Notes: generated by a model from the letters alone, not told the origin. Shown: positions 3,286 to 64,000, counted from the first letter of the stretch. The stretch: DNA of 64,000 nt from an uncultured Gemmataceae bacterium (GCA_963750165.1 CAVVPN010000003.1:1248001-1312000), one strand, 5' to 3'. Numbers and translations are program-made.

Positions 3286-5655
3286 AGCCCGACGCCATCG
3301 CGCCGGGCGCGTCCCCCGTCCGCTCCGCCCCGGGCGGACGAGGACGATCACACGCCCGCGGTGGACATGACGTTTTCGCAGTGGCTCAAGGCCAACCGCG
3401 TTATGCTCGTCATCCTCGCCGCCGTGGCGACGTTCCTGTTCATCAAGTTTGACGCCGAGGGCCTGTGGTCCATCGCCAAGGCGGCCCTGGGCCTGAGCTT
3501 TGTCGTCTTCGTCCACGAGCTGGGCCACTTCCTGGTCGCCAAGTGGTGCGACGTGCATGTGACGACGTTCAGCATCGGCTTCGGGCCGGCACTGCCGGGC
3601 TGCAAGTTCAAGTGGGGCGAAACCACGTACATGCTGGCGCTGTTCCCGCTGGGCGGCTACGTGCAGATGGTCGGCCAGGTCGATGGCGACGAGTCCAGCG
3701 ACGGCACCGAGGAGGATCCGCGCTCGTACAAGAACAAGACGGTCTGGCAGCGCATGGCGATCATCTCCGCCGGCGTCATCATGAACGTCCTCCTGGCGTT
3801 CATCTGCTTCATCATCGTGTTCGAGGGGCCCGGCAAGGACCGCAAGGCGGCGGTGATCGCGGCGACCGACACCGGCTCGCCGGCCTACCGCAAGGGCCTG
3901 CCCACCGGGGCGGTCATCGAGCAGATCGGCGACGTGAAGGAGCCGTATTTTGAGGATCTGCTGGTCACAGTGATGACCACGACCTATGGCGAGAAGCTCA
4001 AACTGGTCTACCAGCAACCGGACCAGGAGCCGGTCAGCACCGAGATTGAGCCGCGGCTGGGACCGGACGACAAACGGCCGGTGATCGGCATCCAGCCGGC
4101 GCCGTCGCTGGAGTTGATGCCGCAGCGCTACGTCGGTAAGTCGATGGAGCAGCCGGCGTACCCGAACAGTCCCGCGGCCCGTGCGGAACCGCCGTTCGAG
4201 TTCGGCGATCACATCGTCGCCACCACCGACCCGGACCAGGCCGGGCCGTATGACCCGAAGAAGATCAAGGAACTGCCGCTGGACCCGCGCAAGCATGACG
4301 GCCAGCAGCGCGACTATTTCGCGTTCACGAAGCGGCTGCGCGAGCTGGCCGGCAAGCCGATGGTCATGCGCGTGGAGCGCGGCAAGAACCGCGAGAAGGT
4401 GGACATCCTGGTGTCGCCGGCGTTCCATCAGACGCTCGGGGCGCGGATGAAGATGGGCCAGGTGACGGCGGCCCGCAACGGCAGCGCCGCGGCGGAGCTG
4501 TTGCAGCAGCGTGACACAAGCAACACCGTCACCCGCGAAGGGGACGTGCTCAAGGCGGTGGAGGTGCGTGAGCCGGACGGCAGCCCGACGCGCTACGTCG
4601 AGACGGTCGGCACGCCGGAACTGGCGGCGCAGCTGGCGAGCGCTGTGTTCCTGCCGCCCTGGGCGCAGCCGCTGGCCCTGGCGCGGACCCTGGAGGTCGA
4701 GAAGCCGCTCGACCCGACGCGGCTGCCCGATCAGTTGCGGGCCTGGGCGAAGCGCATGCGCGACCACGGCAAGAAGGATCTGACCGTGACGCTGCAGGTG
4801 AAGCGGCACCGCGCCGCGGCCGGCAACACCTACGAAATGAAGACGGTGACGCTGCCCTGGGACTTCCGCTGGGAGTTCGACAACGAGGTGCCCTTCGGCA
4901 TGAACTCGCCGCTGTCGATCCCGGAACTGGGCTTCGCCTACCGCATCCAGGCGACGGTGCTGGACGTGGGCCCGAGGCCAGCCGACGGCCTGAAGGCCGG
5001 CGACGTGGTCAAGCGCATCCGCTACCACGGCAAGAACGCCGAGGGCAAGGTCGAGGATTTGCCGTGGCTCGAACTCAAAGGCGATCAGTGGGCGCGGGTG
5101 TTCTGGACAATGCAGAGTCCGGAGATCGTCAAGGTGACGCTGGAGGTGGAGCGCAACGGCCAGACGAAAGAGCTGACGATTGAGCCGCTGGTGGATAAAC
5201 ACTGGCCGCGGGATGAGCGCGGCCTGCTGCTGGCGGCCGACGTGCGGTTGCAAAAGGCGAGTAATCTGATGGAGGCCATCGGCATGGGCCTCAAGGACAC
5301 GCTCAACAACATGGGGCAGGTGTATCAGAACCTGCGCGGCATGTTGACGGGGCGCATCAGCACGGACAACCTGGGCGGCCCGGTGATGATCGCAACGGTG
5401 GCGTACCGGATCGCGGGCATCGACTTCTGGGAGTTCCTGTTCTTCCTGGGCCTGATTAGCGTCAACCTGGCGGTGATTAACTTCCTGCCGATCCCGGTGC
5501 TGGATGGCGGCCACATGGTCTTCCTGATTTACGAGAAGATTCGCGGCAAGCCGGCTTCGGAGGCGGTGCGTGTCGGTGCCACCTACGCGGGGCTGCTGAT
5601 GCTGGCGTCGCTGATGCTGTTCGTGCTGTTCCTGGACATCAAGCGGCTGTTGTAG
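3240..5655 (+). CDS. rseP: RIP metalloprotease RseP (M50 site-2 protease with PDZ-like domains); probable indel near 3332
   Basis: HELGH, NFLPIPVLDGGH, FSIGFG motifs in ORF 3361-5655; AGGAGG before GTG 3240 suggests the real start is upstream in another frame. Confidence 0.9.
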
Positions 5656-41273: not shown

Positions 41274-41714
41274 TCACGACGTGTGATCGTGGATGATGCG
41301 CCACTGGCCCTTGACCTTGTGAAAGATCAGGGTAAAGAGCCCCTCGGCGGTCTCCTTCTTCAGCGTCAGCACGAAGCGGCCGCGCACGAACGCATGGTCG
41401 GCGCCGGCCATCTGAATGTCGAGGTCGCGAAAAGCCAGCTGGCCCATTTCCTTGCCGTCAGCCTGGTACGTCTTCTGATAGCGCTCCAGCGTCGCCGCCC
41501 AGCCGCGCGTCACCTTCTTGCCGGCGTAGAACGTCAGGTTCGGCGACTGCCAGTAGCCCTGCATGAAGCCCTTCAGATCGCCCTTGTTCCAGGCCGCCAC
41601 CTGGGCGTCGAGGACCGCGCGCACCGCCTGCTTGCCGTCCTGCGGCTGCGGCTGCGCGGCCGCCAGCGCCGCCAGCAGCGCCAGGCCGGTCAGGACCGTC
41701 AGCGGTCGCGTCAT
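41274..41714 (-). CDS. Secreted NTF2-like (DUF4440/SnoaL) protein
   Basis: Signal peptide; AWNKGDLKGFMQGYW, GLFTLIF, WRIIHDHTS. Confidence 0.88.
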   Translation of the reverse strand: MTRPLTVLTGLALLAALAAAQPQPQDGKQAVRAVLDAQVAAWNKGDLKGFMQGYWQSPNLTFYAGKKVTRGWAATLERYQKTYQADGKEMGQLAFRDLDIQMAGADHAFVRGRFVLTLKKETAEGLFTLIFHKVKGQWRIIHDHTS

Positions 41715-42835
41715 AGCGGGTTCTCCTTGTCGTCGGGAGTGAGGTCAATGTTCACGTCCAGCGGCTTGCCAGACAGATCCTGCAAGTCGAGTTCGATCCA
41801 CTCCTCCTCACCAGGAACCTTGGCGGGAGTTGGCGGCGCCGGCGGCGTCTGGGCGTGGGCGACCGGCGGCAGCGGCGCGGCCGCCGGGGGCGTGGGCGCG
41901 GCCGCGGTCGCGCCGGCCGGCGGCACGTGGGCCTGGTCGAACAGCCCCTGGTGGAAGCGCTGGCCGTTGACCTCCAGGGTGAAATAGTCAGCGTCGAGCG
42001 GCACCTCGAACTCCAGGTACGCGGGCAGGCCGCCCTTGCCATAGTCGCGCAGAACGCGGCCCTTCGAGTCGAGGAGGCGGCCGTGGTCCGCGACGCGGGC
42101 GTGCCTGTCCACGACTTCCGCGAAGATTTCCTGCACCACACGCATTTCCGCGGCGATCTTGTGGTCCCACAGGTCCACGTCGGTGCCGGTGTCCAGGTCG
42201 TCCAACTCGATCATCTGACTTTCGTTGATTTCCGGGCCGACGCCGATGAGCACGAACTTGACCGGGTTGCGCCGGCCCGCGGCGATGTCGCGGGCCAGGT
42301 TCGTGCTGTAGCGCTCGACGGCGTCCAGGTCGTGCAGTTCGCCGTCGGTGATGAAGACGAAGAAGCCCCACGGGGCGGAGCGGAAACGCTCGACGAAGTA
42401 GCGCACCGCCGGCAGCAGCTGCGTGCCGGTGCCAAAATCCTTCGGTGGCCCGAACGTGTGCTGTTCCGCCTCGTCGGCGCGGAAGTCGCCGACCACCTCG
42501 ATATGGCCGCCACCCTCGCCGGTGGCCCAGTAGATGCAGGTGGTGCCGCCGTCCGCGTCAATCTTGCGCGCCAGGTAGGCGCAGATGCGCTGGGCGATGG
42601 GCGTGATCTCGTTGACCGGCTTGTGTTTCTTGAACAACGGCGACACGACACCGCCGCCGTCGTCGATGCCGTAGAGCTTGTACATGGAGCCGGAGCCGTC
42701 GAGGGCGATGCCGGTCTGGGCGCCTGCGCGGTGCGGCTCCATCAGGATGGTGGCGACGACGCGCGTGCGGTCGTTGTCGGCCGGGTAGACGTTCACCTCG
42801 CCGAAGGGTTCGTTGACGTGTTTCAACTGGGTCAT
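41711..42835 (-). CDS. vWA domain protein, paralogue 2, with Pro/Ala linker and acidic tail
   Basis: MIDAS DGSGS...GT...FITDG; ATG 42835 aligns with the start of paralogue 1. Confidence 0.88.
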   Translation of the reverse strand: MTQLKHVNEPFGEVNVYPADNDRTRVVATILMEPHRAGAQTGIALDGSGSMYKLYGIDDGGGVVSPLFKKHKPVNEITPIAQRICAYLARKIDADGGTTCIYWATGEGGGHIEVVGDFRADEAEQHTFGPPKDFGTGTQLLPAVRYFVERFRSAPWGFFVFITDGELHDLDAVERYSTNLARDIAAGRRNPVKFVLIGVGPEINESQMIELDDLDTGTDVDLWDHKIAAEMRVVQEIFAEVVDRHARVADHGRLLDSKGRVLRDYGKGGLPAYLEFEVPLDADYFTLEVNGQRFHQGLFDQAHVPPAGATAAAPTPPAAAPLPPVAHAQTPPAPPTPAKVPGEEEWIELDLQDLSGKPLDVNIDLTPDDKENPL

Positions 42836-42876
42836 GGGGGATCCTCGTGGTTCTGCCGCTTGCGGCAGAAGAAACA

Positions 42877-43785
42877 TTACGTCTTCAATTCCTGCGTGAT
42901 CTGCTGACCTTCCACGTCGAGCACGAAATGCAGCGAGCCGGCGGGCAGCTCGAACTCCAGGAACGCGGGCACGCCGGTGTCGGAGTAATTCTTGACGACC
43001 TGGCCCTGGGCGTCCAGGATTTTCCCGCGGTCGCTGACGCGGGCGTTCTTGCTGACGACTTCCGCGAAGATTTCCTGCAGCACGCGCATGTGGGCGGCGA
43101 TCTTGTGGTCCCACAGATCGATCTCGGTGCCGGTGTCCAGGTCGTCCAGTTCTTCCATTTGCTGTTCGTTGATGTTGTCGCCGACGCCGATGAGCACGAA
43201 CTTGAGCGGCTTGCGCCGGCCGGTGGCCACAGCACGGGCCAACTCCGCGCTGTACTGCTTGACCGCGTTCAGGTCGTGCAGTTCGCCGTCGGTGATGAAG
43301 ATGTAAAAGCCCCACGGCGCGTCCTGGAAACGCTCGACGAAATACTTCACCGCGGGCAGCAGTTGCGTGCCGGTGCCGAAATCATCCGGCGGCCCGAAGA
43401 CGTGCTGCTCGGCCTGGTCCGCGGTGAGGTCGCCGACTTCCTGAATGCGGCTGCCGCCGGGGCCGGTGGCCCAGTAAATGCAGGTGGTGCCGCCGTCCGC
43501 GTCGAGCTTGCGCGCCAGGTAGGCGCACAGCTTCTGTGCTACCGGCGTCACCTGGTTAACGGGCTGCTGCTTCTTGCCGAACAGGCTCGCGAGGAATCCG
43601 CCGGTCTGTTCGCCGACGCCGTACAGCGCCGCCATCGAGCCGGAGCCGTCCAGGGCGATGCCGGTCTGCGTGCCCTCGCGGCGCGGCTCCATCAGGATGG
43701 TCGCCGTCACGCGGACCTTGCCGCTGGCCGCCGGATAGACATTCACTTCCCCGAAGGGATCAACGACGTGTTTGACCTGGGCCAT
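42877..43785 (-). CDS. vWA domain protein, paralogue 1
   Basis: IALDGSGSM, GTGTQLLPA, FITDGE, FVLIGVG; GGAGG RBS. Confidence 0.9.
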   Translation of the reverse strand: MAQVKHVVDPFGEVNVYPAASGKVRVTATILMEPRREGTQTGIALDGSGSMAALYGVGEQTGGFLASLFGKKQQPVNQVTPVAQKLCAYLARKLDADGGTTCIYWATGPGGSRIQEVGDLTADQAEQHVFGPPDDFGTGTQLLPAVKYFVERFQDAPWGFYIFITDGELHDLNAVKQYSAELARAVATGRRKPLKFVLIGVGDNINEQQMEELDDLDTGTEIDLWDHKIAAHMRVLQEIFAEVVSKNARVSDRGKILDAQGQVVKNYSDTGVPAFLEFELPAGSLHFVLDVEGQQITQELKT

Positions 43786-43915: not shown

Positions 43916-46335
43916 ATGAACGATCCCCCCCCACAAGGTCTGACTGCCGCCGAGGTCGCCGACCGCGTTCGCCGCGGCCTCGTCAACCGCCACCCCAGCT
44001 CCGCCTGGGCCGACTACGCCCAGATCGTCCGCCGCAATATTCTGACCCTGTTCAACGCCCTGGTGCTGCCGGCCGCGGTCGCCCTGTTCTACCTCGGCAA
44101 GCCCCAGGGCGGCATCGCCGTCAGCGGCATGGCCATCGTCAATTCCCTCATCGGGTTGGTCGAGGAAATCAAGGCTAAACGCCACCTCGACCGACTCACC
44201 ATTCTCGTCGAGACGCGCGTCCGTGTGCTGCGCGACGGCCAGTCGCAAGCAATCCCCGCCAGCGCGGTCGTCCGCGACGATTGCGTGTTGCTCGGCAGCG
44301 GCGAGGCCGTCGTCGCGGACGGCAGCGTCGTGCAGTCGCGCTTTCTGGAGATCGACGAGGCGCTGCTGACGGGCGAGTCCGATCCGGTGCGCCGCCACGT
44401 CGGTGAGCGCGTGCTGTCGGGCAGCGTCTGCGTCGCCGGGGAGGGGGCCTACCGAGCGGAGCGCGTCGGCGCCGCGGCGTTCGCACAGAGCACTGCCGTC
44501 CAGGCCCGCCGCGCGCACCACGCCCAGAGCCCCATGACCGCGACCATTAACCTGCTCATCCAGATTCTGACGTGGACGGCGGTCAGCCTGTGTGTGCTGT
44601 ACCTCGGCATCCACCTGGCCGGCCACGTGACGCAGGCGCGCATGGTCGAGATGATGGCGGCGACGATCACGTCGATGGTGCCGCAGGGCCTGGTGCTGAC
44701 GGCAACCATTTCGTTCGCACTGGGGGCTATCCACATGAGCATGCGCGGCGCCGTCGTGCAGCGCCTCAACGCCGTCGAGGCGATGGCCGCGGTGGACGTG
44801 GTGTGTACCGACAAGACCGGGACGCTGACCACCAACCTGCTCAAACTCGCTCAGCTACGGCAGCTGGCGTCGGCCGCCGGCGAAGACGAAGTGCGGCGGC
44901 GGCTGCGGCTGTTTGCGTCGGCGTCGGTCGATCAGAAGAACAAGAACATCCAGGCGCTCTGCGCCGCCCTTGGCACGGTCGAGGTCGAATTACTCGACCA
45001 GTTGCCGTTCAAGTCACAGAACCGCTACAGCGCGGTGCGCGTCCGTGATGGCGGCGGCGAGCGCGTCCTGGTGCTGGGCGCCTGCGAGGCGCTGCGCTCC
45101 CATCTCGGGAGCGACGGCGGTTGGGAGGCGGCCTGGCGCGAACTGCTGCCGACGGGACTGCGGCTGCTGCTGTTCGCGGAGGCGACGGAACCTCACCCGT
45201 TCGCGGACACGCTGGCGGACTTCACGCTGCAGCCGCTGGCGCTGGCAGCGCTCAGCGACGAACTGCGGCCCGAGGCGGCCCGGGTGCTGGAGGCGTTGAC
45301 CGCCCAGGGCATCGCCTTCAAGGTGCTCTCCGGCGACAACGCCGAGACGGTGCGCGCCACCGTCGCCACGCTTGACCTGCCGCTGGCGCGCGACGCGGTT
45401 GTCAGCGGCGACGAACTGGCCGCGGCAACGGATAAGGAGGCGTTGATCCGTGACCGCGGCGTCTTCGGCCGGGTGGCGCCGCAGCAGAAAGTGGAGATCG
45501 TCGAGACGCTACAGCGGCAGGGACGCTTCGTCGCCATGATTGGCGATGGCGTCAACGACGTGCTGCCGTTGAAGAAAGCGCACCTCGGCATTGCGATGGG
45601 CGCCGGCAGCCAGGCGAGCAAGACCGTTGCCGGCCTGATCCTGGAGAACAACAACTTCGCACTGCTGCCCGAAGCACTGGAAGAGGGCCGCACGATCATC
45701 CGCAACCTGCGCCGCTGCAGCAAGCTGTTCCTGACAAAGAATGTGTATTCGTTGATCCTGTTGCCGCTGGGGCGCTCGGCGTGTTCGGCCTGCCGTTCCC
45801 GTATGTGCCGCAGCAGGTGACGCTGCTGAACTGGCTGGTGATCGGCCTGCCGGCGCTGGTGATCGCCCTGAGCCGTGAGCGTTCGCAGGGGGCGACGCGG
45901 CCGCGGTTCCTGCGCGAGGTCGGCAGCTTCGCCGTGCGCAGCGGCGTCGTCTTCGCGCTGGCGGGGCTGACCATGCTGCTGCTGGCCGTCCACGTCTGGC
46001 GCTACGACGAGCGGACGCAGGTGACGCAGCTGCTGTCGATGCTGATCCTGCTGGGCATCACGGCACTGCTGCGGGCGCTGACCGACGGTGAGGCGCAGCC
46101 GCTGGTCGGCGACACGCGCTTCCGGCTGCTGGCGGCGGCGGCGCTGCCGGCGTACCTGCTGGCGATGTACTGGGACTTCTCGGCGCGCTTCTTCCAGCTG
46201 GCCGCGCTGGACTGGCTGCAATGGTTGCAGGTGGTCGCGGTGGCGCTGCCGGCGTACGGGTTGTCGCTGCTGAGCGACTGGCTGTTTGCCGGCTCCGTTT
46301 ACGTTTCGCGCAGGCAGAGTCCGCGCACAACGTAA
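43916..46335 (+). CDS. P-type cation-transporting ATPase (CtpE-like); frameshift near 45765
   Basis: LTGES, DKTGTLT, SGDN, MIGDGVND; C-terminal TM helices continue in ORF 45781-46335. Confidence 0.92.
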
Positions 46336-47225: not shown

Positions 47226-47585
47226 TTGCCCCGAAGGGGTCCAACAACTTAGCGGTCCGTACCGCAATTAACTGGAGGGTTGGGGGTGACGGCCTGGGAC
47301 CGTAGGACGGCTCTCCAGAGCCGTCCCGCTCACCCCGGGACGGCTCTGGAGAGCCGTCCTACGAACGATCCCGCAACCCTCCAGTTACTTGCGGTACGAA
47401 CCACTTAGCCCAGGGCAACGCCCTGGGTCGCCAGGGCCGACCCCAACCCTTCTTTCTTCCCCGCCCTGAAGGGGCGGGACAACGATGGTTGTGCCCCTTC
47501 AGGGCGGGCAAAAGAAAGGCTGAGGGTTCCTCCCCGTTCCCAGGGCGTTGCCCTGGGCTAAGTTGTTCCGCCCCTTCGGGGCCAA
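47226..47585. repeat. Family D palindrome copy 2, interrupted by the MITE and enclosed by family B arms (47178-47646)
   Basis: Matches 37171-37384 once 47253-47408 is removed. Confidence 0.85.
47253..47403. mobile_element. 151-bp MITE copy 2
   Basis: Differs from 15857-16007 at 2 positions by eye; flanked by a CTTAG direct repeat. Confidence 0.92.
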
Positions 47586-47815
47586 GACACACAAGCAACA
47601 ACGCCCTGGTCTGGCATCAGCGTTTGCGCCAAGCCGCAAGCGGCAGCAAAGCAATGCCTGAACCTGCGTTATCCTGGGGGACCGATACCATTTCGTCAAT
47701 TCCCAAAAAGCGCTTGCCGGCCGACGGCGGCCGTGACTACGATGGGGCGCCGATTTTTTTGCCGACCCGCCAAACCAAATCCGGGCGGCCCTCGTCTTTT
47801 CTTCCCAGGGAGACC

Positions 47816-48370
47816 ATGACCAAACTCGACGAGTGCCTGACTTCCTCAGCGCCGTCGGTCGGCCAGGACGGCCGCGCCGACGCGGACGTGCTGGTGCAGA
47901 CATTCAACGCCCTGCGCAATGAACTCATCAGCACCCTGCTGTACGTGCTGGGCAACCGCGACGACGCCCTCGACGCCGCCCAGGAGGCGTTCGTCAAGTG
48001 CTGGGGCGCCCGCCAGCAACTGCACCAGGTGCAGAACCTGCGGGCGTGGATCTTCCGCGTCGCCTTCAACACCGCCAAGGACATGCAACGCAGTGCCTGG
48101 CACCGCCGGGCCAAACCGCTCCAGGGGGAGGAGTCCTTGATAATGACCAACCACCCCGGCCCCGCACTCACCGTCGAGCTGCAGGAGTCCGTCGAACGAC
48201 TCCGCAAGGCCATTTTGCAGCTGCGCGACGAGGAAAAGGAAGTCTTTCTGCTGCGGCAGAATGGCGAACTCACCTACGAACAGATCGCCGAGCTGCGCAG
48301 CTGCCCCGTCGGCACCGTCAAGACGCAGATGCGCAGCGCCCTGGAAAAATTACGCAAAATCCTGGTGTAG
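47816..48370 (+). CDS. ECF RNA polymerase sigma factor
   Basis: DDALDAAQEAF, LRAWIFRVAFNTAKD, LTYEQIAE...PVGTVKTQM. Confidence 0.93.
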   Translation: MTKLDECLTSSAPSVGQDGRADADVLVQTFNALRNELISTLLYVLGNRDDALDAAQEAFVKCWGARQQLHQVQNLRAWIFRVAFNTAKDMQRSAWHRRAKPLQGEESLIMTNHPGPALTVELQESVERLRKAILQLRDEEKEVFLLRQNGELTYEQIAELRSCPVGTVKTQMRSALEKLRKILV

Positions 48371-48476
48371 AGGACGCGCAGCCGTTTGCCAACCTCTCCG
48401 CACCGCAGCGACATTCACGACCATCGCTTTCGCCCCCAAGAAGCGCACGCCAGCGCGTGCCGTGTGAGGACATGCC

Positions 48477-51400
48477 ATGAACTGCGACCACGCACAACCC
48501 CGACTTCTCGACCAGCTGTTCGGCCTGCTCGACGACACCGAGCAACAGGAACTGCAAGCCCATCTCGCCGGCTGCCCCGCCTGCCAGGCCGCGCTGGAAC
48601 AGGCCAAACAGCAACAACTGGTCCTCGGCATCGCCGCCAAGGGCGATTTCAGCCAGGTGAGCTTTGAGCCGCCGGCGCTGCCGCTCCGCCATCCCGCGCC
48701 GGAGCCAACCTTGCAACTGAAGCGGCCGGCCGCCGTGCGCCGCAACTGGAGCCGCTGGGGCGCCGCCGCTGCGGTCCTGCTCGCCATCGGCGCCGGCGCC
48801 GCGCTGGTCGCATGGCCGTGGGCACGCCATGCTGAGGAGATCGCCGCCGCCGAGCGCCGCCAGCATGAGGCCCAGGCCGCCCGTAGCCGCCTCGACGCCG
48901 ACGAGACCGCCCGGCAGGCGAAGGCGGACGCCGAGCTGCGCGCCGTCCACGAGCAGATCAACGTTCTCCGTGAGCGCTGGGAGCGCGAGACCAACAAGGA
49001 CATGGAAATCAGCGTCACCGGCCCCGAAGACCTGCAGGCCGGCGCTCCCACCACTTACACCATCGAAACGCATCGGCTCCTCAAGGATCAGGCCGCGTAC
49101 AGGAAGGCCCCCGCCCGCATCGGCGTCCAGGTCCTCGAAGCCAGGTCGAACAAGGTGCTGTACGCCTCCAAACAGTTGGCGAGCAACGGCAAGGTCGATT
49201 TGCAACTGCCCGGCGACCTGGCCATTACGCCCGAGACCGAACTGCTGCTGCAGGTCAACGCCGAGAACACCGACGGCAAGAAGGTTGAGGTGACCGAACG
49301 GCTCAAGCTGACCGGGCCGCGTTACCTGACGCACCTGGCCACCGACCGGCCGCTGTACCGCCCCGGCGACACCGTCCGCGCCCGCTCGCTCACGTTGCAG
49401 CGCGTCAGCCTGAAACCGCCCGCCCAGGAGCTGGAACTGCGCTTCCGCCTGACCGACGGCCAGGGCAAGAAGCTGTTCGAGCATATTGGCAACGCCCGGG
49501 TGCGGCTCGACGCCAGGACGAAGGACCTGCTCAAGGACTCGGACGGCACGGTGCTGAACGGTTACGGCGTCGCCAACTTCGCGCTGCCGGAGGAGTTGCC
49601 CGAGGGCGTCTACACGCTCACCGTCAGCGAGGAGCGCAACCGCTTCCCCGCCGAGAAGCGCACGTTCCTGGTGCGCCGCTTCCAGACGCCGCGGCTCAAC
49701 AAGGAGGTCGAGTACCACCGCGCCTCTTACGGCCCCGGTGACGCGGTGCAGGCCAACTGCGTCGTCCGCCGCGTCGAGGGTGGCGCCGCCGTCGCCGGCC
49801 AGCCCGTCGAGGCCAGCGTGCGCGTCGATGGCCAGGACGTGCCGGTCGAGCACACCGGCAAGCTCGCCACCGACGCCGCCGGCCGTGTCACGGTGAAGTT
49901 CCGCCTGCCCGAAAAGCTGGTGGACGGCCGCGGCAGCCTGTCGGTCGTCTTCCACGACGGCAAGATCATTGAGACGCTCGACCGGCCGCTGCCGATCGCC
50001 CTCAATCGGCTGCACATCGAGTTCTTCCCCGAGGGCGGTGACCTCGTCGCCGGCGCCGCCAACCGCGTTTACTTCCAGGCCCGCACGCCCCTCGGCCGGC
50101 CCGCCGAGCTGCGCGGCCAGATCATCGACCTGGGCACGTTCGGCCTGTCCGGACTCGCGCCCGGTGATCCCGTCGCCGCGGTGCAGACGCTCAGCGACGA
50201 TAAGGAACCCGGCGTCAACCAGGGCCTGGGTGCCTTCCACTTCACGCCGCGGGCGGGCCACATCTACGCCCTCAAGATCGACACGCCGAAGGGCATGCCC
50301 GGCTTCTACCCGCTGCCGGCGGTGCGCCCCGCAGGCGTCGTGCTGCACACGCCACAGGGCGTCGTGACCGACGGCATCGAGGTCAAGCTGTACAACGCCG
50401 GCCGGCCGCGTCACCTGCTGGTCGGTGCCTACTGCCGCGGCCGGCTGGTGCATCAGCAGACCGTCGCTTGCCCCGCCGACGCCGAGCGTGCCGTGGCCCT
50501 GCGGCCGCCGACCGGCGTCAATGGCGTTTTCCGCGTCACCGTCTTCGAGATGCTGCCCGACCGCGTCCTGAAGCCGCTGGCCGAACGGCTCATCTACCGC
50601 CCGGCCCGCGAGCGCCTCGCCTTCAACGTCAAGACCGACCGCGACGAATACGCTCCCGGCCAGAAGGTCACCGTCCGCGTCAACGCCGACGACGAGCAGC
50701 AGAAGCCGGCGGCCGCGGTGGCGCTGCTGGCGGTGGTCGATCACAGCGTCCTGAAGCTGGCCGACGAGAAGACCTACCGCAGTCTGCCGACGCACTTCTA
50801 CCTGACCACGGAGGTCGGCAAGGCGGACGACCTGGAGCACGCCGACTTCCTGCTGACCGACCACCCGAAGGCCACCCAGACGCTCGACCTGCTGCTGGGC
50901 ACGCAGGGCTGGCGGCGCTTCGCCGAGCAGCCCCAGCAGGACGCCGAGCAGCAAAAGGAACTGTGGATCAAGCATAAGGCCGACGCCGACCGCCTGCTGT
51001 TCGCCTCCGCCGTCACCACGCGCCAGGGCGACGAGGAACTGTTCCAGAAATTGGCCGTCACGCTCGTGACTGAGGCGAAGGAGCTGAAGCGCAAGCACCA
51101 GCAAGTGGTGACGGATCGGCAAGCCCGCGTGGCGCAGGCCGCGGCCGAACGCAAGCGCCTGCAGTCGGAGGAATACACGGCCACGGTGGACATTGGCGAC
51201 GCCGAGGCGGGGTTGACCGGTTATCAAAACCAACTGGTCCACGTCGGCGGTAAACTGGCGGCGCTCGGGCTGCTGGTGCTGGGCTTCGTCGGCATCATCG
51301 TCGGCGCCATGCGCAGCAGCCATCATCAAAAGGAGGGCCGCCTGGCGCTGACGGCCGGTTTCGGCGCGTTCGTGCTGCTGGTGGTCGGCGGCTTCGCTGT

Positions 51401-54317
51401 CGTGCTGTACACCGCTGGCCAACAGGGGGGCTCGGAATCAAACGGCCGTTTGCTCGTGTTGTTTGATAAGTCCGAAGCGATGAAGGAAAAAGAAAAGGCC
51501 ATGGACAAGGCGGCAGCGAAGCAGTGGACGGAGGTTGACGGCAAGGAGGAAAAGGAGCTTCGAAACGCATTGCCGGAAATCTTACAAGCTCAGCGGAATG
51601 CACCCGTCATGTTGACGCGCGTCAAGGTGTTCGATGACGCAGGGCTGGGGGACGAAATCCGCCAACTCAACGAGTTGCTCCGCGAACAGAAGGGCATCAG
51701 GGGTCAGCTGGAAATCGGTCTCGATCCCAAGCAGGGCAAACAGAGACCCGCTGACAAGAAAGAACCGCCGGCCAAGCGCGACCCGGAAGGCCAAGGCAAA
51801 GCAGTGATGGGGAAGGATAAGATGCCTGAACCTGCCTTGGAGCTTATGGTCCCCGCCGGCATCGTCGCCAAGGATCTGCCTCTCGGAGCGAAACTCCGAC
51901 AATTGGCCCTGCAACAGGGGGAACAAGAGATCCTGCCATTGCTGGAACGCATGGACGACGGTAAGCGTGGTCAGAACTTCCAACTCAAGGCCCTTGTGGG
52001 GGAGTACCTCCAGGCCGGCGGCGAGAAACGCAAGAAGTTCTTCCGCGAGATGGAAGGGCTCGAACCGCATCTGCGGCGCAGGCTCGTCCAGCTGCTGGAA
52101 CAGGCGTATGAGCCCTGGGTGGTGCGGCAGTACGCTCACAAGCACACCGCGGCGGCCGACGCGCTCCGCACCGACTTCACCGACACCGTCTGCTGGCAGC
52201 CCGTGCTGGTGCTGCCCGCCGGCAAGACCACCGAGGTGCAGTTCGACCTCAACGACTCCGTGACGCGCTTCCAGATCCTCGTCGCCGGCTGCGACGCCGA
52301 CGGCCGGCTCGGCAGCGCCACGAAAGAATTCGCGGCGAAGCTGCCGTTCAGCCTGCACCCCAAACTGCCGGGCGAAATCAGCAGCGGCGACCGGCTCACG
52401 GTGCCGGTGACGCTCGCCAACGACACGAAGCAGCCGAGCCAGGTGACCGTCTCCGTCAAGGCCGACGGCCTCAAGGTGGCGGGCGCCGCCGCGGTGACCC
52501 GCAAGGTCGGCGGCCAGACGCGGACACGGACGCTGTTCGACCTGACGCCCACCACGGTGGACGGCGTCGCCACGCTGCGTTTCCTGGGCCGCGGCGACCC
52601 GTTCGGCCTCGACGCCATCCAGAAGAAGATTCGCATTGTCCCCGATGGCTATCCCGTGGAAAAATCGCTGAGCGACGTGCTCAGCGGCAACGTTGTCAAC
52701 ACGGTGACGCTGCCGGGGCGGCGCGACCAGTGGGTGGCGGGCACGCTGAAGCTGCAGGCCCAGGTGTTCCCGTCAACGCTATCCGAATTGCAGCAGAGCA
52801 TGGCGGGGATGCTGCGCGAGCCCTACGGCTGCTTCGAGCAGACCAGCAGCAGCAATTATCCGAACGCGCTCATCCTCAGCTACCTGAAGGAGCACGGCCA
52901 GGTGCAGCCGGACATCGAGAAGCGGGCGCAGGACCTGCTGACGCGCGGCTACGCCCGGCTGATCGGCTTCGAGTGCAACAACCCGAACCCGCAGCAGGGG
53001 CCGCCGAAGCGGGGCTTCGAGTGGTTCGGCGGCAATGCTCCGCCGCACGAGGCCCTGACCGCCTACGGCCTGCTGGAGTTCACCGACATGGCGAAGGTAT
53101 TCCCGGTGGACATGGACATGGTGGCGCGGACGAAGACATTCCTGCTGAAGCAGCGCGACGGCAACGGCGGTTTCAACAAGCGGCAGGGCGGCTTCGATGG
53201 CTTCGGCCGGGCGCCGGCGGAATTGACCGACGCTTACATCCTGTGGGCGCTGTCCGAGGCCGGCGCCGCCAATGAAATCCAGCGTGAACTGAACGCCCAG
53301 CACGCCGCGGCGAAGGTCAGCAAGGATTCGTACTTCATCGCGCTGATCGGCCTGAGCTTGCAGAACGCCGGCCGCACGGACGACGCGGTGGCGCTGCTGC
53401 GGCGGCTGCTGGCGGCGCAGCAAAAAGACGGCCACGTCGGCGGCGCCACGACGAGCATCACGCGCTCCGGTGGCCAGAATTTGCACCTGGAGACGACGGC
53501 GCTGGCGGTGCTGGGCTGGCAGAAGGCCAAACGGCCCGACTTCCAGGCGCCGATCCAGAAGGCGATTCGCTGGATTGGTCAGCAGCGCAACGGCGGCGGC
53601 TCGTTCGGCACGACACAGGCGACGGTGCTGTCGCTCAAGGCGCTGCTGACGCACGCCCGCGACAGCAAGCACATGGCGAAGGACGGCGAGGTGCGGCTGT
53701 ACGTCGGCACTGCGAAGGACCCGGTGGTGGTGCAGAAGTTCACGGCCGGCCAGCAGGGGGTGATCACGCTGCCGCTGGCGGACGTGGAGAAGTTGCTGCA
53801 ACCGGGCGACAATCAGGTGCGGCTGGAGCTGACGGGCGGCAACGTGCTGCCGTACACGCTGGCGTGGTCGTACCGGACGGTGACGCCGGTGTCGCACGCC
53901 GACGCGCCGCTGTCGCTGCTGACGAAGCTGGACCGTAACGCCGCGAAGGAGGGCGACACGGTGCGGCTGACGGTCGAGCTGAAGAGCGTCAAGAAGGCGG
54001 ACGGCATGGCGGTCGCGGTGATCGGCCTGCCCGCGGGGCTGATGCTGCCGGACAACCTGGAAGAGTTGAAGCAGCTGGTGAAGCTGCGCGACAACGGCAC
54101 GAAGCCGGGCGAGGTGGATCACTTCGAGGTGCAGGGCCGCGAGCTGGTGCTGTACTGGCGGCAGGCGCCGGCGGCGCGGACGGTGACGTTGTCGCTGATC
54201 TGTCAGAACCCGGGCACGTTCCGCGGGCCGGCGAGCCGGGCGTACCTGTATTATCAGCCGGAGCGCAAGGCGTGGGTCGAGCCGCTGGGCGTGACCGTGA
54301 CGCCAGCGGCAGAGTGA
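48477..54317 (+). CDS. Fusion of a zf-HC2 anti-sigma domain, a TM helix and an alpha-2-macroglobulin family thioester protein
   Basis: MNC...HLAGCPAC; TM; TDRPLYRPGD (MG2); TDRDEYAPGQKV..AVVDHSVL; RTDFTDTVCW; PYGCFEQTSS thioester; GFEWFG; ASRAYLYY C-terminus. Confidence 0.92.
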   Translation: MNCDHAQPRLLDQLFGLLDDTEQQELQAHLAGCPACQAALEQAKQQQLVLGIAAKGDFSQVSFEPPALPLRHPAPEPTLQLKRPAAVRRNWSRWGAAAAVLLAIGAGAALVAWPWARHAEEIAAAERRQHEAQAARSRLDADETARQAKADAELRAVHEQINVLRERWERETNKDMEISVTGPEDLQAGAPTTYTIETHRLLKDQAAYRKAPARIGVQVLEARSNKVLYASKQLASNGKVDLQLPGDLAITPETELLLQVNAENTDGKKVEVTERLKLTGPRYLTHLATDRPLYRPGDTVRARSLTLQRVSLKPPAQELELRFRLTDGQGKKLFEHIGNARVRLDARTKDLLKDSDGTVLNGYGVANFALPEELPEGVYTLTVSEERNRFPAEKRTFLVRRFQTPRLNKEVEYHRASYGPGDAVQANCVVRRVEGGAAVAGQPVEASVRVDGQDVPVEHTGKLATDAAGRVTVKFRLPEKLVDGRGSLSVVFHDGKIIETLDRPLPIALNRLHIEFFPEGGDLVAGAANRVYFQARTPLGRPAELRGQIIDLGTFGLSGLAPGDPVAAVQTLSDDKEPGVNQGLGAFHFTPRAGHIYALKIDTPKGMPGFYPLPAVRPAGVVLHTPQGVVTDGIEVKLYNAGRPRHLLVGAYCRGRLVHQQTVACPADAERAVALRPPTGVNGVFRVTVFEMLPDRVLKPLAERLIYRPARERLAFNVKTDRDEYAPGQKVTVRVNADDEQQKPAAAVALLAVVDHSVLKLADEKTYRSLPTHFYLTTEVGKADDLEHADFLLTDHPKATQTLDLLLGTQGWRRFAEQPQQDAEQQKELWIKHKADADRLLFASAVTTRQGDEELFQKLAVTLVTEAKELKRKHQQVVTDRQARVAQAAAERKRLQSEEYTATVDIGDAEAGLTGYQNQLVHVGGKLAALGLLVLGFVGIIVGAMRSSHHQKEGRLALTAGFGAFVLLVVGGFAVVLYTAGQQGGSESNGRLLVLFDKSEAMKEKEKAMDKAAAKQWTEVDGKEEKELRNALPEILQAQRNAPVMLTRVKVFDDAGLGDEIRQLNELLREQKGIRGQLEIGLDPKQGKQRPADKKEPPAKRDPEGQGKAVMGKDKMPEPALELMVPAGIVAKDLPLGAKLRQLALQQGEQEILPLLERMDDGKRGQNFQLKALVGEYLQAGGEKRKKFFREMEGLEPHLRRRLVQLLEQAYEPWVVRQYAHKHTAAADALRTDFTDTVCWQPVLVLPAGKTTEVQFDLNDSVTRFQILVAGCDADGRLGSATKEFAAKLPFSLHPKLPGEISSGDRLTVPVTLANDTKQPSQVTVSVKADGLKVAGAAAVTRKVGGQTRTRTLFDLTPTTVDGVATLRFLGRGDPFGLDAIQKKIRIVPDGYPVEKSLSDVLSGNVVNTVTLPGRRDQWVAGTLKLQAQVFPSTLSELQQSMAGMLREPYGCFEQTSSSNYPNALILSYLKEHGQVQPDIEKRAQDLLTRGYARLIGFECNNPNPQQGPPKRGFEWFGGNAPPHEALTAYGLLEFTDMAKVFPVDMDMVARTKTFLLKQRDGNGGFNKRQGGFDGFGRAPAELTDAYILWALSEAGAANEIQRELNAQHAAAKVSKDSYFIALIGLSLQNAGRTDDAVALLRRLLAAQQKDGHVGGATTSITRSGGQNLHLETTALAVLGWQKAKRPDFQAPIQKAIRWIGQQRNGGGSFGTTQATVLSLKALLTHARDSKHMAKDGEVRLYVGTAKDPVVVQKFTAGQQGVITLPLADVEKLLQPGDNQVRLELTGGNVLPYTLAWSYRTVTPVSHADAPLSLLTKLDRNAAKEGDTVRLTVELKSVKKADGMAVAVIGLPAGLMLPDNLEELKQLVKLRDNGTKPGEVDHFEVQGRELVLYWRQAPAARTVTLSLICQNPGTFRGPASRAYLYYQPERKAWVEPLGVTVTPAAE

Positions 54318-54325
54318 CGGGAAGA

Positions 54326-54397
54326 GCGCCAAGCCGCAAGCGGCAGAAAGCTGGGGTGACGCGTCATCCCTTCTTTCTGCCGCTTGCGGCTTGGTGC
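54326..54397. repeat. Family B palindrome (arms in reversed order) after the A2M stop
   Basis: gcgccaagccgcaagcggcagaaag...ctttctgccgcttgcggcttggtgc. Confidence 0.85.
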
Positions 54398-54658: not shown

Positions 54659-56802
54659 TCACGCCGGATAAAATCCCTTGCCCGCTGCCGCCAGCTTGCG
54701 CATCTGCTCCGTCGGCTGGAAGCGCAGCCCCAGCGCTTCGTAGCGGCTCAGCTTTTCCAGCACCGTCTTGAGCCCGAGCGTGTCCGCCCAGCGCAGGATG
54801 CCGCCGCGGAACGGCGGAAAGCCGATGCCCAGAATCAGGCCCATGTCCACGTCGCCCGGCTCGCGCACAATGCCCTCGGTCAGCACCCGGCTTGCCTCCA
54901 CCAGCATCGGCAGGAACAACCGATCCGTCAGTTCCTCCTGCGTGAACTGCTTCTGCCCGGTGCGCACGCGCTCCAGGATCGCCGCGAACGCCGGATCGTC
55001 CGCGCCCTTGCCGCCCTTCAGGTAGCTGTAAAAGCCGGCCCCGCTCTTCTGACCGAGCCGGCCCGCGGCGACCAGCTCGCCGAGGATGCGCGTCGGCTTC
55101 GCCCGGTCGGCGAACGCGGTGTTGACCACCTGCCCCGCATACAGCGACGTGTCCAGGCCCACCAGATCGTTGAGCGTCACCGGCCCCATCGGCATGCCGA
55201 ACGCCACCGCCGCTTTATCGATGTCGCGCGGGTTGGCCCCCTCCTCCAGCAGCACCAGCGACTCGTTGAGGTACGGGAACAGGATGCGATTCACCAGGAA
55301 CCCCGGACAGTCGCGCACGACAATCGGCGTCTTGCCGATGCGCCGCGCCAGCGCCACCAGCGTCGCCACCGCCTCGTCGCCGGTCTTTTCTCCGCGGATC
55401 ACCTCCACCAGCTGCATGCGATCCACCGGGTTGAAGAAGTGCATGCCCGCGAAGCGCTCCGGCCGAGACCACGCCTGGGCCATGCGCGTGATGGAAATCG
55501 TCGAGGTGTTCGACGCCAGAATCACGTCCTGCCGCAGAATCTGTCGCAGCTGGCCATACATCTCCGTCTTGGCCGCCTCATTCTCGACGATGGCCTCGAT
55601 GACCACGTCGCAGTCGCGCAGCAGTTCCAGGTTGCTGGTCGTGGTCAGGCGCATCATGGCCGTGATCATTTCCGCGGGCGTCATGCGGCCGATCTCAATA
55701 CGGCCCTGCATGCTCTTGGCGATGGCGGCGACGCCCTTCTCCAGCGCCGCGGGCACCTTGTCGATCATGACGGCAGGCAGACCGCGGCGGATGTGAGCGC
55801 CGGCGATGCCCGCGCCCATGATGCCGGCGCCGAGCACACCGACGCGCTGCACGTCGCGCGGTTTTACATTCGGATCGCTGACGCCGGGATCCTTCGCCAG
55901 CCGCTGCTGCTGGAAAAAGATGGCGATCAGGTTGCGCGAGATCGGGCTGCCGACCAGTGGCAGGAACGACTCCGTTTCGACCTGGAGGCCGTCCGTTAGC
56001 GGCAGGTTACAGCCCTTGATGATCGCGTCCAGCGCTGCCAGCGGCGCCGGCAGCTGGCCCCTGGTTTTCATCAGCACCTGCCCGCGCACCACCGCGGCGG
56101 TGAAGCTCAACTCCTCCTCGGTGAGACCGACCGGTTGCCGCTTGCGCCGGCGCAACTCCTGCCAGTCGCCGCTGTCGATGGACCAGTGGATGAGCCGCAC
56201 CGCCTCGTCCTGGAGGCGTTCGCTCGGCACCGCGTCGAAGACGATGTGCAGCTCGCGCGCCGCTGGGCGTTGACCGCGTCGCCGGGGCAGATCAGCTCCG
56301 CCGCCAGTGCCGGGCCGATGAGCCGCGTCAGCCGCTGCGTGCCGCCCCAACCGGGGATGATGCCGATTTTCGTCTCGGGCAAACCGATCTCCGTCTTCGG
56401 ATGCGAGCCGGCCAGGCGGTAGTCGAAGCCGAGCGCGAATTCCGTGCCGCCACCCATGCAGGCACCGTCGATCAGCGCCACCGTCGGGAACGGCAGTTCC
56501 TCGAACGCGGCGATGATGTTCAGGCCGCGGGCGGTTAGCTTGCGCATCATGTCCGGCGTCGCGTTGCTGGCGCCGAGTTCCTTCAGGTCGGCCCCGGCGA
56601 TGAACATGCCCGGCTTGCCGCTGCGCAGGATCAGGCCGCGCACGTCCGTGCGGCCCCGGAGTTCGGCGAGCACCTGCTCGAACTCCGCCTGGATGGGCTG
56701 GCCGAGCGTGTTGGCCCGGCTGCCGGGCAGGTCGAAGGTCAACACCGCGATGCCGTCCTCGCCGATGTGCAGGCCGAGGGCCGCCGAAGACGCCTGTGCC
56801 AT
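54659..56802 (-). CDS. fadB: Fatty acid oxidation complex alpha subunit (enoyl-CoA hydratase/3-hydroxyacyl-CoA dehydrogenase); frameshift near 56263
   Basis: FIAGADL, GGGTEFAL, GLPETKIG in the first frame; GAGIMGAG, EAIVE, SNTS, GMHFFNP, GFLVNR in the second; FadB vs FadJ not resolved. Confidence 0.9.
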
Positions 56803-56823
56803 TTCTTCATCCTCCTTCGGAGG

Positions 56824-56934
56824 AGTCATTAGCCATTAGTCATTAGTCATTAGTTATCTGGGTTGGGGAGCCGGGCGAGCGTCTCGGCTCCCCAACCCAG
56901 ATAACTAATGACTAATGACTGATGACTAATGACT
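56824..56934. repeat. Palindrome with heptamer (AGTCATT/AATGACT) tandem arms
   Basis: Four heptamers on each side of tatctgggttggggagccg...cggctccccaacccagata. Confidence 0.85.
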
Positions 56935-63014: not shown

Positions 63015-63272
63015 GACAGTCTCCTCCCTGACGACGGCACGGCCGCGCAGTAATCCCCTGGGGATCGCCTTTAACAAAAGTATCGGTTGCGCCGCCAGCG
63101 GACTTGAACAATTTTCAGTGGCGCGACGAAAAAGGTTCAAGTTTTCCCAGATGGTCGCGGGATGTGGTGGCCCGGCGACGGCCGCCCCGCTATCTTCCAC
63201 TACAGTTTACCGCGGGCGCCTCGGCCGACCGGCCGCCGCCACTCCCGCGGCCCCCCAGGCAAGGAGTCACCC

Positions 63273-64000
63273 ATGAAACTTCACCATTATGTACTGGCCC
63301 TGCTCGGCGGCCTGGCCGCCACCGCTGCCCGCGCGGACGACTGGGTCGTCTACGAAGGCAAGGACGGCCCCGGCAAGGGCAAGCACATCGTCCTGCTCAG
63401 CGGTGACGAGGAGTACCGCTCGGAAGAAGGGCTGCCGATGCTGGCCAAGATTCTCAGTCAGCGGCACGGTTTCAAATGCACCGTCCTGTTCGCCGTGGAC
63501 AAGAACGGGCTCATCAACCCCAACAACAAGGCCAGCCTGCCGGGCGCGCAGCGCTCTTCAGCGCCGACGCCATCATCATGGCGCTGCGCTTCCGCGACTA
63601 CCCGGATGAGACGATGAAGCACTTCGTGGACGCCTACGAGCGCGGCGTGCCGATCATCGCGCTGCGCACCAGCACGCACGCCTTCCAGCCGTCCAAGGGC
63701 AGCGCGTACAGGAGCTACGGCGACTTCGGCAAGCGCATGCTCGGCGAGCGCTGGGTGAACCACTGGGGCAAGCACAAGGTCGAGGCGACGCGCGGCGTGA
63801 TTGAACCGTCGGCCAAGGACGACCCGTTGCTGCGCGGCGTCAGGGACGTGTTCGGCAACACCGACGTGTACGAGGCGTACCCGCCGAAGGACGCGAAAAT
63901 TCTGCTGCGCGGCCTGGTGCTCAAGGGCATGAAGCCGGCCGACCCGGCGGCGGCGTACAAGAAGAAGCGCGCCTCCGACAAGCAGGAGCAGGACATCAAC
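63273..64000 (+). CDS. ThuA-like (class I glutamine amidotransferase fold) secreted protein, partial; frameshift near 63551
   Basis: KHIVLLSGDEEYRSEE, then in a shifted frame RFRDYPD, IALRTSTHAF, WVNHWG; runs off the window end. Confidence 0.8.

Follow-up and report, generated by a model that had tools for sequence, protein, structure and literature searches.

Organization of the locus

The window analysed here is a stretch of 64,000 nucleotides (nt) from an uncultured Gemmataceae bacterium (GCA_963750165.1, CAVVPN010000003.1:1248001-1312000), with positions counted from its first letter. The system under study is a two-gene unit in which the gene of a sigma factor of the extracytoplasmic function (ECF) type with 184 amino acids (aa), matched in sigma regions 2 and 4 (47816..48370, +), is followed after a gap of 106 nt by an open reading frame (ORF) of 1946 aa without internal stop (48477-54317, +), whose translation joins an anti-sigma domain to an alpha-2-macroglobulin (A2M)-like body. 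The next gene lies on the opposite strand, and a 36-nt hairpin directly after the fusion ORF (54326-54397) may end transcription. The host genome measures 9.6 Mb and is 93% complete, and the relatives found are labelled mostly Gemmataceae, Gemmatales or Planctomycetota.

The Pfam search of the fusion ORF matched zf-HC2 (aa 3-37, E 4e-7), MG2 (285-399), A2M (1237-1326), the thioester domain TED (1430-1723) and bMG10 (1822-1929), and an A2M_BRD match at aa 716-761 fell under its cut-off; the thioester motif CFEQ starts at aa 1452 (52830-52841). The original prediction, an earlier reading of this DNA, had described the ECF gene with a 1946-aa ORF about 100 bp further on, the zinc motif C3/H29/C33/C36, macroglobulin (MG) domains, an A2M domain, CFEQ and a C-terminal domain, and had proposed a search for these families together with A2M_BRD; the gene pair, the zinc motif in the translated sequence and the domains are all present, A2M_BRD apart. 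For the sigma factor, only the TIGR02937 superfamily passed its cut-off, with no NCBIfam equivalog among the 25 best matches shown. Automated names such as 'anti-sigma factor RsiW' and 'MG2 domain-containing protein' each cover one end of the fusion only.

Conservation of the fusion and its linkage to the sigma factor

The anti-sigma/macroglobulin fusion is real and conserved. All of the top 42 database matches (42/42) are proteins of 1764-2025 aa with an anti-sigma-like N-terminus and PxGCFEQ, and 207 homologues of the fusion were found among 8000 scored candidates. A macroglobulin match occurs in 24/24 genomes of the family and 15/15 of the sister family, some of these matches being other macroglobulins. 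Of 201 genomes across the phylum, 54 reach E<=1e-12 with a macroglobulin match that in many cases is no fusion, and in family f4 such a match was found in 0/9 genomes.

The linkage to the sigma factor, which the original prediction had also noted, is conserved when approached from either gene, in counts drawn from related genomes. The sigma factors form a tight group (52-76% identity across Gemmatales), and such an ortholog lies directly upstream of the fusion in 35/36 loci (L031-L066), the single miss beginning at a contig end. In the reverse survey, covering the best 80 of 305 sigma orthologues (L071-L150), the fusion follows 75/80; in the five loci where it was missed, no more than 285 nt of downstream sequence are available. 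Outside the order, the sigma group was detected at E<=1e-40 in 7/45 selected genomes, in 7/7 beside a macroglobulin match; three inspected genomes of other families (G102, G107 and G182) contain the sigma factor, an anti-sigma domain without zinc ligands, the transmembrane (TM) helix, the ring, the hairpin and CFEQ.

A second macroglobulin lineage shows the same anti-sigma/TM/hairpin layout with a different ECF of 27% identity (L070, P0065), and may represent an independent fusion or an ancient duplication. Among its members, the ECF upstream is a different one in L068 and L070, and P0065 and P0068 differ in their zinc anti-sigma N-terminus.

Anti-sigma domain and membrane topology

The class I anti-sigma domain with its CHCC zinc motif, aa 1-66 (48477..48674, +), presumably cytoplasmic, was modelled by AlphaFold as three helices (3-14, 20-32 and 34-55) with block values of the predicted local distance difference test (pLDDT) of 94-97. 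The Hx3Cx2C motif of this three-helix N-terminal domain is kept in 52/65 relatives, and the copies without zinc ligands keep the interface pattern L-Y-x-L-L and A-A-x(4)-F-P. The ESMFold2 model of the sigma factor with aa 1-70, built on a 31-row alignment per partner, gave an interaction prediction score from aligned errors (ipSAE) of 0.81 against 0.01 for the best control, with contact agreement between runs of at least 96% and partner pLDDT of at least 87; the ipSAE mark is reached by 116/157 solved complexes and by 2/215 mismatched pairs. The modelled interface consists of anti-sigma residues 11-17 and 46-66, which include the most conserved positions of the family (L11, L17, A53, F63 and P66), with contacts in both sigma halves. 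Because complexes of sigma factors with zinc-binding anti-sigma (ZAS) domains have already been solved, the pass of the model may reflect likeness to these rather than binding, and it is at this level of a model that the sigma binding foreseen in the original prediction found support. That the fusion acts as the anti-sigma factor of its ECF sigma factor is held with high confidence.

Three hydrophobic helices were observed, at about aa 94-114, 923-946 and 956-980 (Kyte-Doolittle 2.0-2.6), all modelled as helical by AlphaFold, where the original prediction had seen one TM helix and overlooked the hairpin on the bait side; a single-TM topology is rejected on the basis of hydropathy, the relatives and the AlphaFold model. 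TM1 (aa 94-114; 48756..48818, +) is rich in Ala and Gly, preceded by a basic stretch and modelled at low pLDDT, and may be a substrate of RseP. It continues into helical stalk 1 (aa 115-172; 48819..48992, +), a candidate zone for site-1 cleavage. Stalk 2 (aa 853-922) leads into TM2 (923-946) and TM3 (956-980), joined by a short basic loop, and the hairpin is inserted at the start of the bait region (51033..51416, +). In the AlphaFold model of aa 1-990 (50-row alignment, mean pLDDT 82.6, predicted TM-score (pTM) 0.67), a 78-residue helix (95-172) comprises TM1 and its stalk. Next come the ring, built as a beta sandwich (177-738), and the linker helices, after which a second long helix of 96 residues (853-948) has TM2 at its end and TM3 behind it. 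Confidence is low for residues 64-103 and 841-852. TM2 and TM3 would form a hairpin with the whole macroglobulin on one side of the membrane, because the second half of MG6 follows TM3, and basic residues, which occur ahead of TM1 and in the loop of the hairpin, suggest that this side is the outside. The bait region would therefore be tied to the membrane, an arrangement known, to our knowledge, from no A2M.

The hairpin travels with the anti-sigma domain. In a survey of 81 of 120 listed proteins, with the anti-sigma-like N-terminus judged by eye and motif, both hairpin helices were present in 61/65 anti-sigma-fused proteins and at least one in 65/65, and 12/13 proteins of the same clade without the anti-sigma domain have no helices at the bait position. 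A protein from a cluster labelled Anaerolineaceae (P0071) has six TM helices there.

Macroglobulin ring, bait region and thioester

The MG ring, CUB, TED and C-terminal MG domains follow one another in the order of the superfamily, as judged from domain matches and models. The ring (MG1 to the first half of MG6) with its linker helices, aa 177-841 (49005..50999, +; Pfam and AlphaFold), finds its best fold matches in the beta chains of complement C3/C5, with E about 1e-26 and TM-scores of 0.5-0.58 by target length. Behind the hairpin lies the bait-equivalent region, a charged, variable and poorly alignable stretch of about aa 981-1212 (51417..52112, +), which appears in nearly all relatives as a BLAST gap from about aa 1000 to 1190-1215. 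The motif 'R-x-x-F-x-E-T-x-x-W', with which MG6b begins, comes after it, the placement seen in human A2M, and the TM hairpin lies before it; by its character and place this is a predicted bait region and a candidate cleavage site.

The C-terminal part, MG6b-MG7-CUB-TED-CUB-MG8 with CFEQ (52113..54317, +), aligns collinearly with human A2M from position 11 to position 716 of the 731-position profile. C1452-Q1455 (C-F-E-Q) is invariant in 22/22 aligned long forms, and the residues aligned with the C-terminal-domain thioester pocket of animal type (Met1844 and Tyr1923/1925/1926) are nearly so, with M1844, Y1923 and Y1926 in at least 90% of the 22 sequences and Y1925 invariant; the predicted thioester thus retains both CxEQ and a protective hydrophobic pocket. 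Asp1574 (53196-53198) aligns with the first Asn of 'SLLNN' in human A2M. At this position His versus Asn/Asp governs thioester reactivity, with Asn/Asp giving reaction with amines, and the Asp suggests that the predicted thioester would react with amines. Compared with native A2ML1/CD109, the model of the C-terminal 745 aa (pLDDT 87.5, pTM 0.79) has a TM-score of 0.74, and compared with activated C3b one of 0.33, so the thioester domain is modelled as packed on the last MG domain. A pocket lying wholly in the C-terminal MG domain has been described as the eukaryotic arrangement (PMC4498604).

The macroglobulin half falls, by similarity scores that are not a phylogeny, into an animal-like clade apart from the YfhM type. 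The 22-member family profile scored 254 bits against human A2M, 245 against CD109, 189 against TEP1 and 186 against C3, and 54.7 bits against E. coli YfhM and 47.5 against Salmonella A2M; by fold the gap is smaller (TM-score 0.74 to A2ML1/CD109 versus 0.63-0.67 to bacterial A2Ms). The single fusion sequence found 42 solved relatives at E<=0.001, with 0 bacterial A2Ms among them. The likening, in the original prediction, to the lipoprotein A2M next to pbpC finds no support for this clade, and no BiPBP_C/PbpC match over the cut-off was found in the 93%-complete genome. The fusion is the only TED gene found in this genome. Proteins of the same clade carry other modules elsewhere, such as an N-terminal FHA domain (P0056) and an OmpA domain inserted near the bait position (P0072), and one member is labelled Bacteroidota (P0070).

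Forms lacking the thioester domain

The long form is one of several architectures in the family, and several lineages have lost the thioester domain through deletions that fall on domain boundaries. The single-contig genomes G003 and G023 have the long form, and Gemmata algarum JC673 (L122) has a short one. The 80 loci of the sigma-centred survey were classed automatically into 37 long, 20 short and 18 contig-cut forms and 5 without a match; hand checking removed two false regular-expression matches and one full-length copy without the Cys from the long forms, leaving 34 with a true CxEQ. A clean end right behind MG6b was seen in twelve loci; frameshifts or misplaced starts probably account for the other short ones. 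In the genome of the window itself, a paralogue (L059) of 1165 aa ends exactly at the MG6/MG7 boundary and has its own sigma factor and promoter. In L048-L050 and L053, MG6b is joined straight to MG8, and five loci (L062-L066) are reduced to 793-871 aa. All TED-less forms keep the sigma factor, and those inspected keep the long flexible loop at the bait position, which is even enlarged in L048 and L059. Full-length copies without the thioester Cys were also observed (L085, P0044). The conserved core of the family therefore comprises the anti-sigma domain, TM1, ring, hairpin and loop. These natural deletions (long, MG8-only tail, ring-only) form a series that dissects what the thioester adds.

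Promoter and predicted regulon

An autoregulated ECF promoter is predicted upstream of the sigma gene from a conserved motif (47771..47796, +), with -35 CAAAC, a 17-nt spacer and -10 CGTC. The group consensus CAA(T/A)C-N17-CGTC lies 10-20 nt before the sigma start in 75/78 orthologous loci when spacers of 16-19 are allowed, and with the spacer fixed at 17 it is present in 108/114 partly overlapping upstream regions. The single site in the window is not above chance (1 found, 1.3 expected); the raw pattern is not rare, so only its positional conservation counts. Upstream of the promoter, nested inverted repeats resembling repetitive extragenic palindromic elements lie at 47248-47582, with arms of 28-42 nt that are up to 100% complementary.

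The top matrix matches in this genome stand before DUF2330, VIT-vWA, a second vWA, WD40 and several unknown exported-looking proteins. Seventeen matches were inspected, of 20 picked partly for their intergenic look from the top 70 of 93: 12/17 are closely followed by an ORF whose start resembles, by eye, a signal peptide, and two are doubtful, L156 at about 340 nt upstream of its ORF and L167 before a ceramidase-family gene without evident signal. Predicted promoters precede 4/6 DUF2330 clusters, covering 11/13 genes. Among relatives, with sites counted when they share the strand of the gene and lie no more than 350 nt upstream of it, the promoter precedes VIT-vWA genes at 18/27 non-self loci with upstream DNA (19/30 with the self locus and two truncated ones), 10/26 non-self DUF2330 loci in five genomes, and a secreted thioester protein without anti-sigma domain at 7/22 loci including the query locus, plus L069; the spacer-20 control gave 0/30, 0/30 and 0/22, respectively. 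The secreted thioester protein was not found in the genome of the window. The best solved relative of the VIT-vWA protein is human ITIH4 (E 4.6e-44, aa 37-576), a bait-type protease inhibitor activated by cleavage (PMC7793589). With promoters before VIT-vWA, DUF2330 and secreted thioester genes, the predicted regulon fits protease defence, in line with the original prediction, and from promoter conservation it is very probable that a regulon of exported proteins stands under this sigma factor.

The secreted animal-like thioester protein (L067:4076-9448, L236-L256) has MG3 and A2M_recep matches and no anti-sigma domain, and many of its relatives are encoded by shorter frames, about 1230-1435 aa in length. 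The 13 DUF2330 genes of this genome (G000) form six clusters (C3:2259254-2261643, C3:2583093-2586900, C3:3095259-3097618, C4:602279-607513, C4:3185-4015 and C4:339190-340008), three other genomes hold 8-11 copies each, and no paper on DUF2330 was found in the literature search.

Neighbouring genes

Downstream of the fusion, a gene resembling a fatty-acid oxidation complex by eye (54659-56829, -) is split into two overlapping frames near 56107-56350. A P-type ATPase gene (43916-46335) and an ORF near 63162-63617 also look frameshifted, possibly through long-read errors, and two tandem paralogous vWA/TerF-like genes with weak Pfam matches lie at 41711-43785 (-).

Proposed mechanism and alternatives

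The system is proposed to work as a one-protein protease-alarm receptor, in which cleavage of the bait leads to RseP-type release of the sigma factor and to more traps, a reading to which we assign a rough probability of 0.52; the fusion, its linkage, its fold and the promoter are established or strongly supported. The cytoplasmic anti-sigma domain, with strong support, would hold the ECF sigma factor, and the model places the macroglobulin body outside the inner membrane on two long helical stalks, one continuing TM1 and one leading into the hairpin, with the hairpin tethering the bait. In the Myxococcus xanthus protein DdvA, a bulky ectodomain blocks RseP from acting on a ZAS anti-sigma factor (PMC11506125), and by this precedent the ectodomain of the fusion may keep RseP off TM1. 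A protease reaching the periplasm would cut the bait, whereupon ring and stalks would rearrange; the ectodomain would be shed by a further cut close to stalk 1, made by the trapped protease, which would still be active, or by a host site-1 protease, and RseP would then cut TM1 and free the sigma factor. In long forms, the thioester would also capture the attacker covalently, probably via lysine; since TED-less forms exist, it would be an accessory rather than the switch. The sigma factor is predicted, from the conserved promoter, to transcribe its own operon and so to replace the consumed receptor, and to induce a set of exported proteins headed by the ITIH4-like VIT-vWA protein, with DUF2330 proteins and, depending on the genome, the soluble thioester protein. 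Among the parts of this reading, RseP-type release is likely, and protease cleavage of the bait is slightly favoured as the natural cue. The RseP-like protease that such release calls for is at hand in a candidate site-2 protease gene with an M50 and PDZ match (3481-5610, +) in a 789-aa open frame about 42 kb upstream, for which no evidence of specific linkage to the fusion was found.

Several points weigh against the protease-alarm reading. It rests on sequences and models, the topology comes from hydropathy, charge and domain logic, and the counts, taken from related genomes, are not independent. A bait cut alone leaves the ring attached to TM1, so the second cut must be assumed. The ring and flexible loop suffice in TED-less forms, which also fits cues other than proteases, and 13/65 anti-sigma-fused relatives are without HxxxCxxC. 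On the side of the regulon, a search across the genome shows no enrichment of the raw promoter pattern (73 matches at spacer 17 versus 80 at spacer 20), 3/17 inspected matches are not promoters (L161, L162 and L164), other ECFs could read the same motif, and many predicted members (WD40, HEAT, di-haem, unknown) have no protease link. VIT-vWA proteins are widespread in bacteria, with protease trapping shown for human ITIH4 only.

An alternative with the same switch between sigma and anti-sigma factor is that the ectodomain responds to whether a partner is present or absent, or to its state of assembly, and is cut by a host site-1 protease, the candidate cues being vWA or DUF2330 proteins of the regulon, a surface-bound ligand or the width of the periplasm gauged by the two stalks; the thioester would then serve, in complement style, to fix the protein, or the ectodomain once shed, on surfaces of the envelope or of foreign origin. 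This is plausible because MagD of P. aeruginosa, itself without a thioester, works in a membrane complex with its operon partners (PMC3735191), and it agrees with the retention of ring, hairpin and sigma factor in TED-less forms, with the C3/C5 beta-chain fold of the N-terminal half and with a regulon rich in vWA proteins. The vWA domain type binds complement C3 fragments in animals. However, the long variable loop at the bait position persists in TED-less forms and is even larger there, which is what a cleavage bait would predict, and the Asp at the A2M Asn position, together with the similarity to A2M/CD109 over C3, favours amine capture; partner sensing is accordingly considered a tentative alternative with clearly less than even chances. 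Thioester activation had been part of the trigger in the original prediction, and an obligatory version, in which TED release with covalent capture frees the sigma factor, could draw on the invariant or nearly invariant CFEQ and pocket residues of the long forms and on the true CxEQ at 34/80 sigma loci. It is not borne out, because at least three TED-less architectures, among them the paralogue in the same genome, keep the same sigma factor and promoter, so firing of the thioester is not a general trigger: the truncations after MG6b (12 in the survey and L059), the MG6b-MG8 joins, the 793-871-aa forms and the Cys-less full-length copies all speak against it, and as an obligatory trigger it is largely rejected and regarded as improbable.

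Two further explanations receive still less weight. The N-terminal domain could be a mere anchor or relic, with an ordinary trap co-transcribed with a sigma factor controlled otherwise, as the zinc ligands lost in some relatives might suggest; yet the Zn-less copies retain the residue pattern of the modelled interface, no other anti-sigma candidate accompanies the sigma factor and the domain outlasts TED in reduced forms, which makes this explanation very unlikely. An assembly or annotation artefact joining two genes, on whose side a few frameshifted copies in metagenome-assembled genomes could be counted, is given practically no chance in view of unbroken ORFs in dozens of independent genomes, including the single-contig genomes G003 and G023; the recurrence of the same fusion in independent genomes likewise makes a misassembly between the ZAS and MG parts very unlikely.

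Significance and comparison with known systems

The system is a real and widespread variant of the ECF/anti-sigma theme with an animal-type thioester protein as receptor, and it is apparently undescribed: no description of an anti-sigma/macroglobulin fusion was found in the literature searched, and supplements of planctomycete ECF surveys may list the pairing. An uncharacterised ECF group of Planctomycetota is thereby given a defined sigma factor, promoter and predicted regulon, DUF2330 and bacterial VIT-vWA proteins gain a testable context, and a bacterial clade of animal-like macroglobulins bears on the origin of complement-type proteins. If the protease-alarm reading is true, the fusion would be the first member of the thioester family to serve as a receptor that transduces a signal, and the bacterium would have a direct means of detecting foreign proteolysis in its envelope. 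A wider and rather doubtful proposal is that Planctomycetota possess an extracytoplasmic defence circuit resembling complement. Its transmembrane receptor, a thioester protein of animal type, would respond to proteolytic attack (by predators, phage or competitor enzymes) by having the genes for soluble thioester proteins and ITIH4-like traps transcribed. Animal A2M/CD109/C3 may, on this proposal, have their closest prokaryotic relatives in this clade; if true, it would reopen the direction of transfer for these proteins.

Among the systems compared, DdvA-DdvS of Myxococcus xanthus (PMC11506125) shares with the fusion a CHCC zinc anti-sigma domain of about 70 aa, a TM helix, a periplasmic domain of very large size with a relationship to a proteolysis module of eukaryotic type, an autoregulated defence-type regulon and RseP cleavage once the ectodomain is removed. 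DdvA differs in its TPR-CHAT protease ectodomain, single TM helix and CRISPR/CBASS regulon, whereas the ectodomain of the fusion has the fold of a protease inhibitor and includes a thioester, and the fusion has three TM helices, a membrane-pinned bait and a predicted regulon of exported proteins; the word 'macroglobulin' is absent from the main text of that paper. In the described ECF groups, vWA-fused anti-sigma factors belong to ECF226 and ECF289, with ECF276 cited beside them as a likeness, and 'macroglobulin' and 'A2M' have 0 occurrences in the main text and part of the supplement (Casas-Pastor et al. 2021, PMC7826278). The main predicted regulon member resembles ITIH4 over the VIT and vWA core (aa 37-576, E 4.6e-44; PMC7793589), and the trap function of the bacterial protein is predicted by this analogy.

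The classical bacterial macroglobulins, E. coli ECAM/YfhM and Salmonella SaA2M (PMC4498604) and P. aeruginosa MagD (PMC3735191), have in common with the fusion the overall fold (TM-score 0.63-0.67) and an inner-membrane-associated periplasmic macroglobulin with a bait region, which in the fusion is a predicted one, and ECAM also shares the CxEQ thioester. Unlike them, the fusion has no lipobox or signal peptide and no pbpC or mag operon, and it carries an anti-sigma domain with an uncleaved TM helix at the N-terminus and a TM hairpin in the bait region. It is set apart from the YfhM type by pocket residues in the C-terminal MG domain, as in eukaryotic A2Ms, and from the MagD/YfaS type, without thioester and in a six-gene operon, by CFEQ and a two-gene unit. 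Animal A2M, A2ML1, CD109, TEP1 and C3/C4 share with the fusion the collinear MG6b-MG7-CUB-TED-CUB-MG8 order, PxGCxEQ, the pocket Met with Tyr-x-Tyr-Tyr and the native-state fold (TM-score 0.70-0.74). Animal thioester proteins are secreted or anchored by glycosylphosphatidylinositol, and we know of none with a cytoplasmic domain that binds a transcription factor; unlike them, the fusion has no C345C domain, and its bait is partly replaced by the stalk and hairpin.

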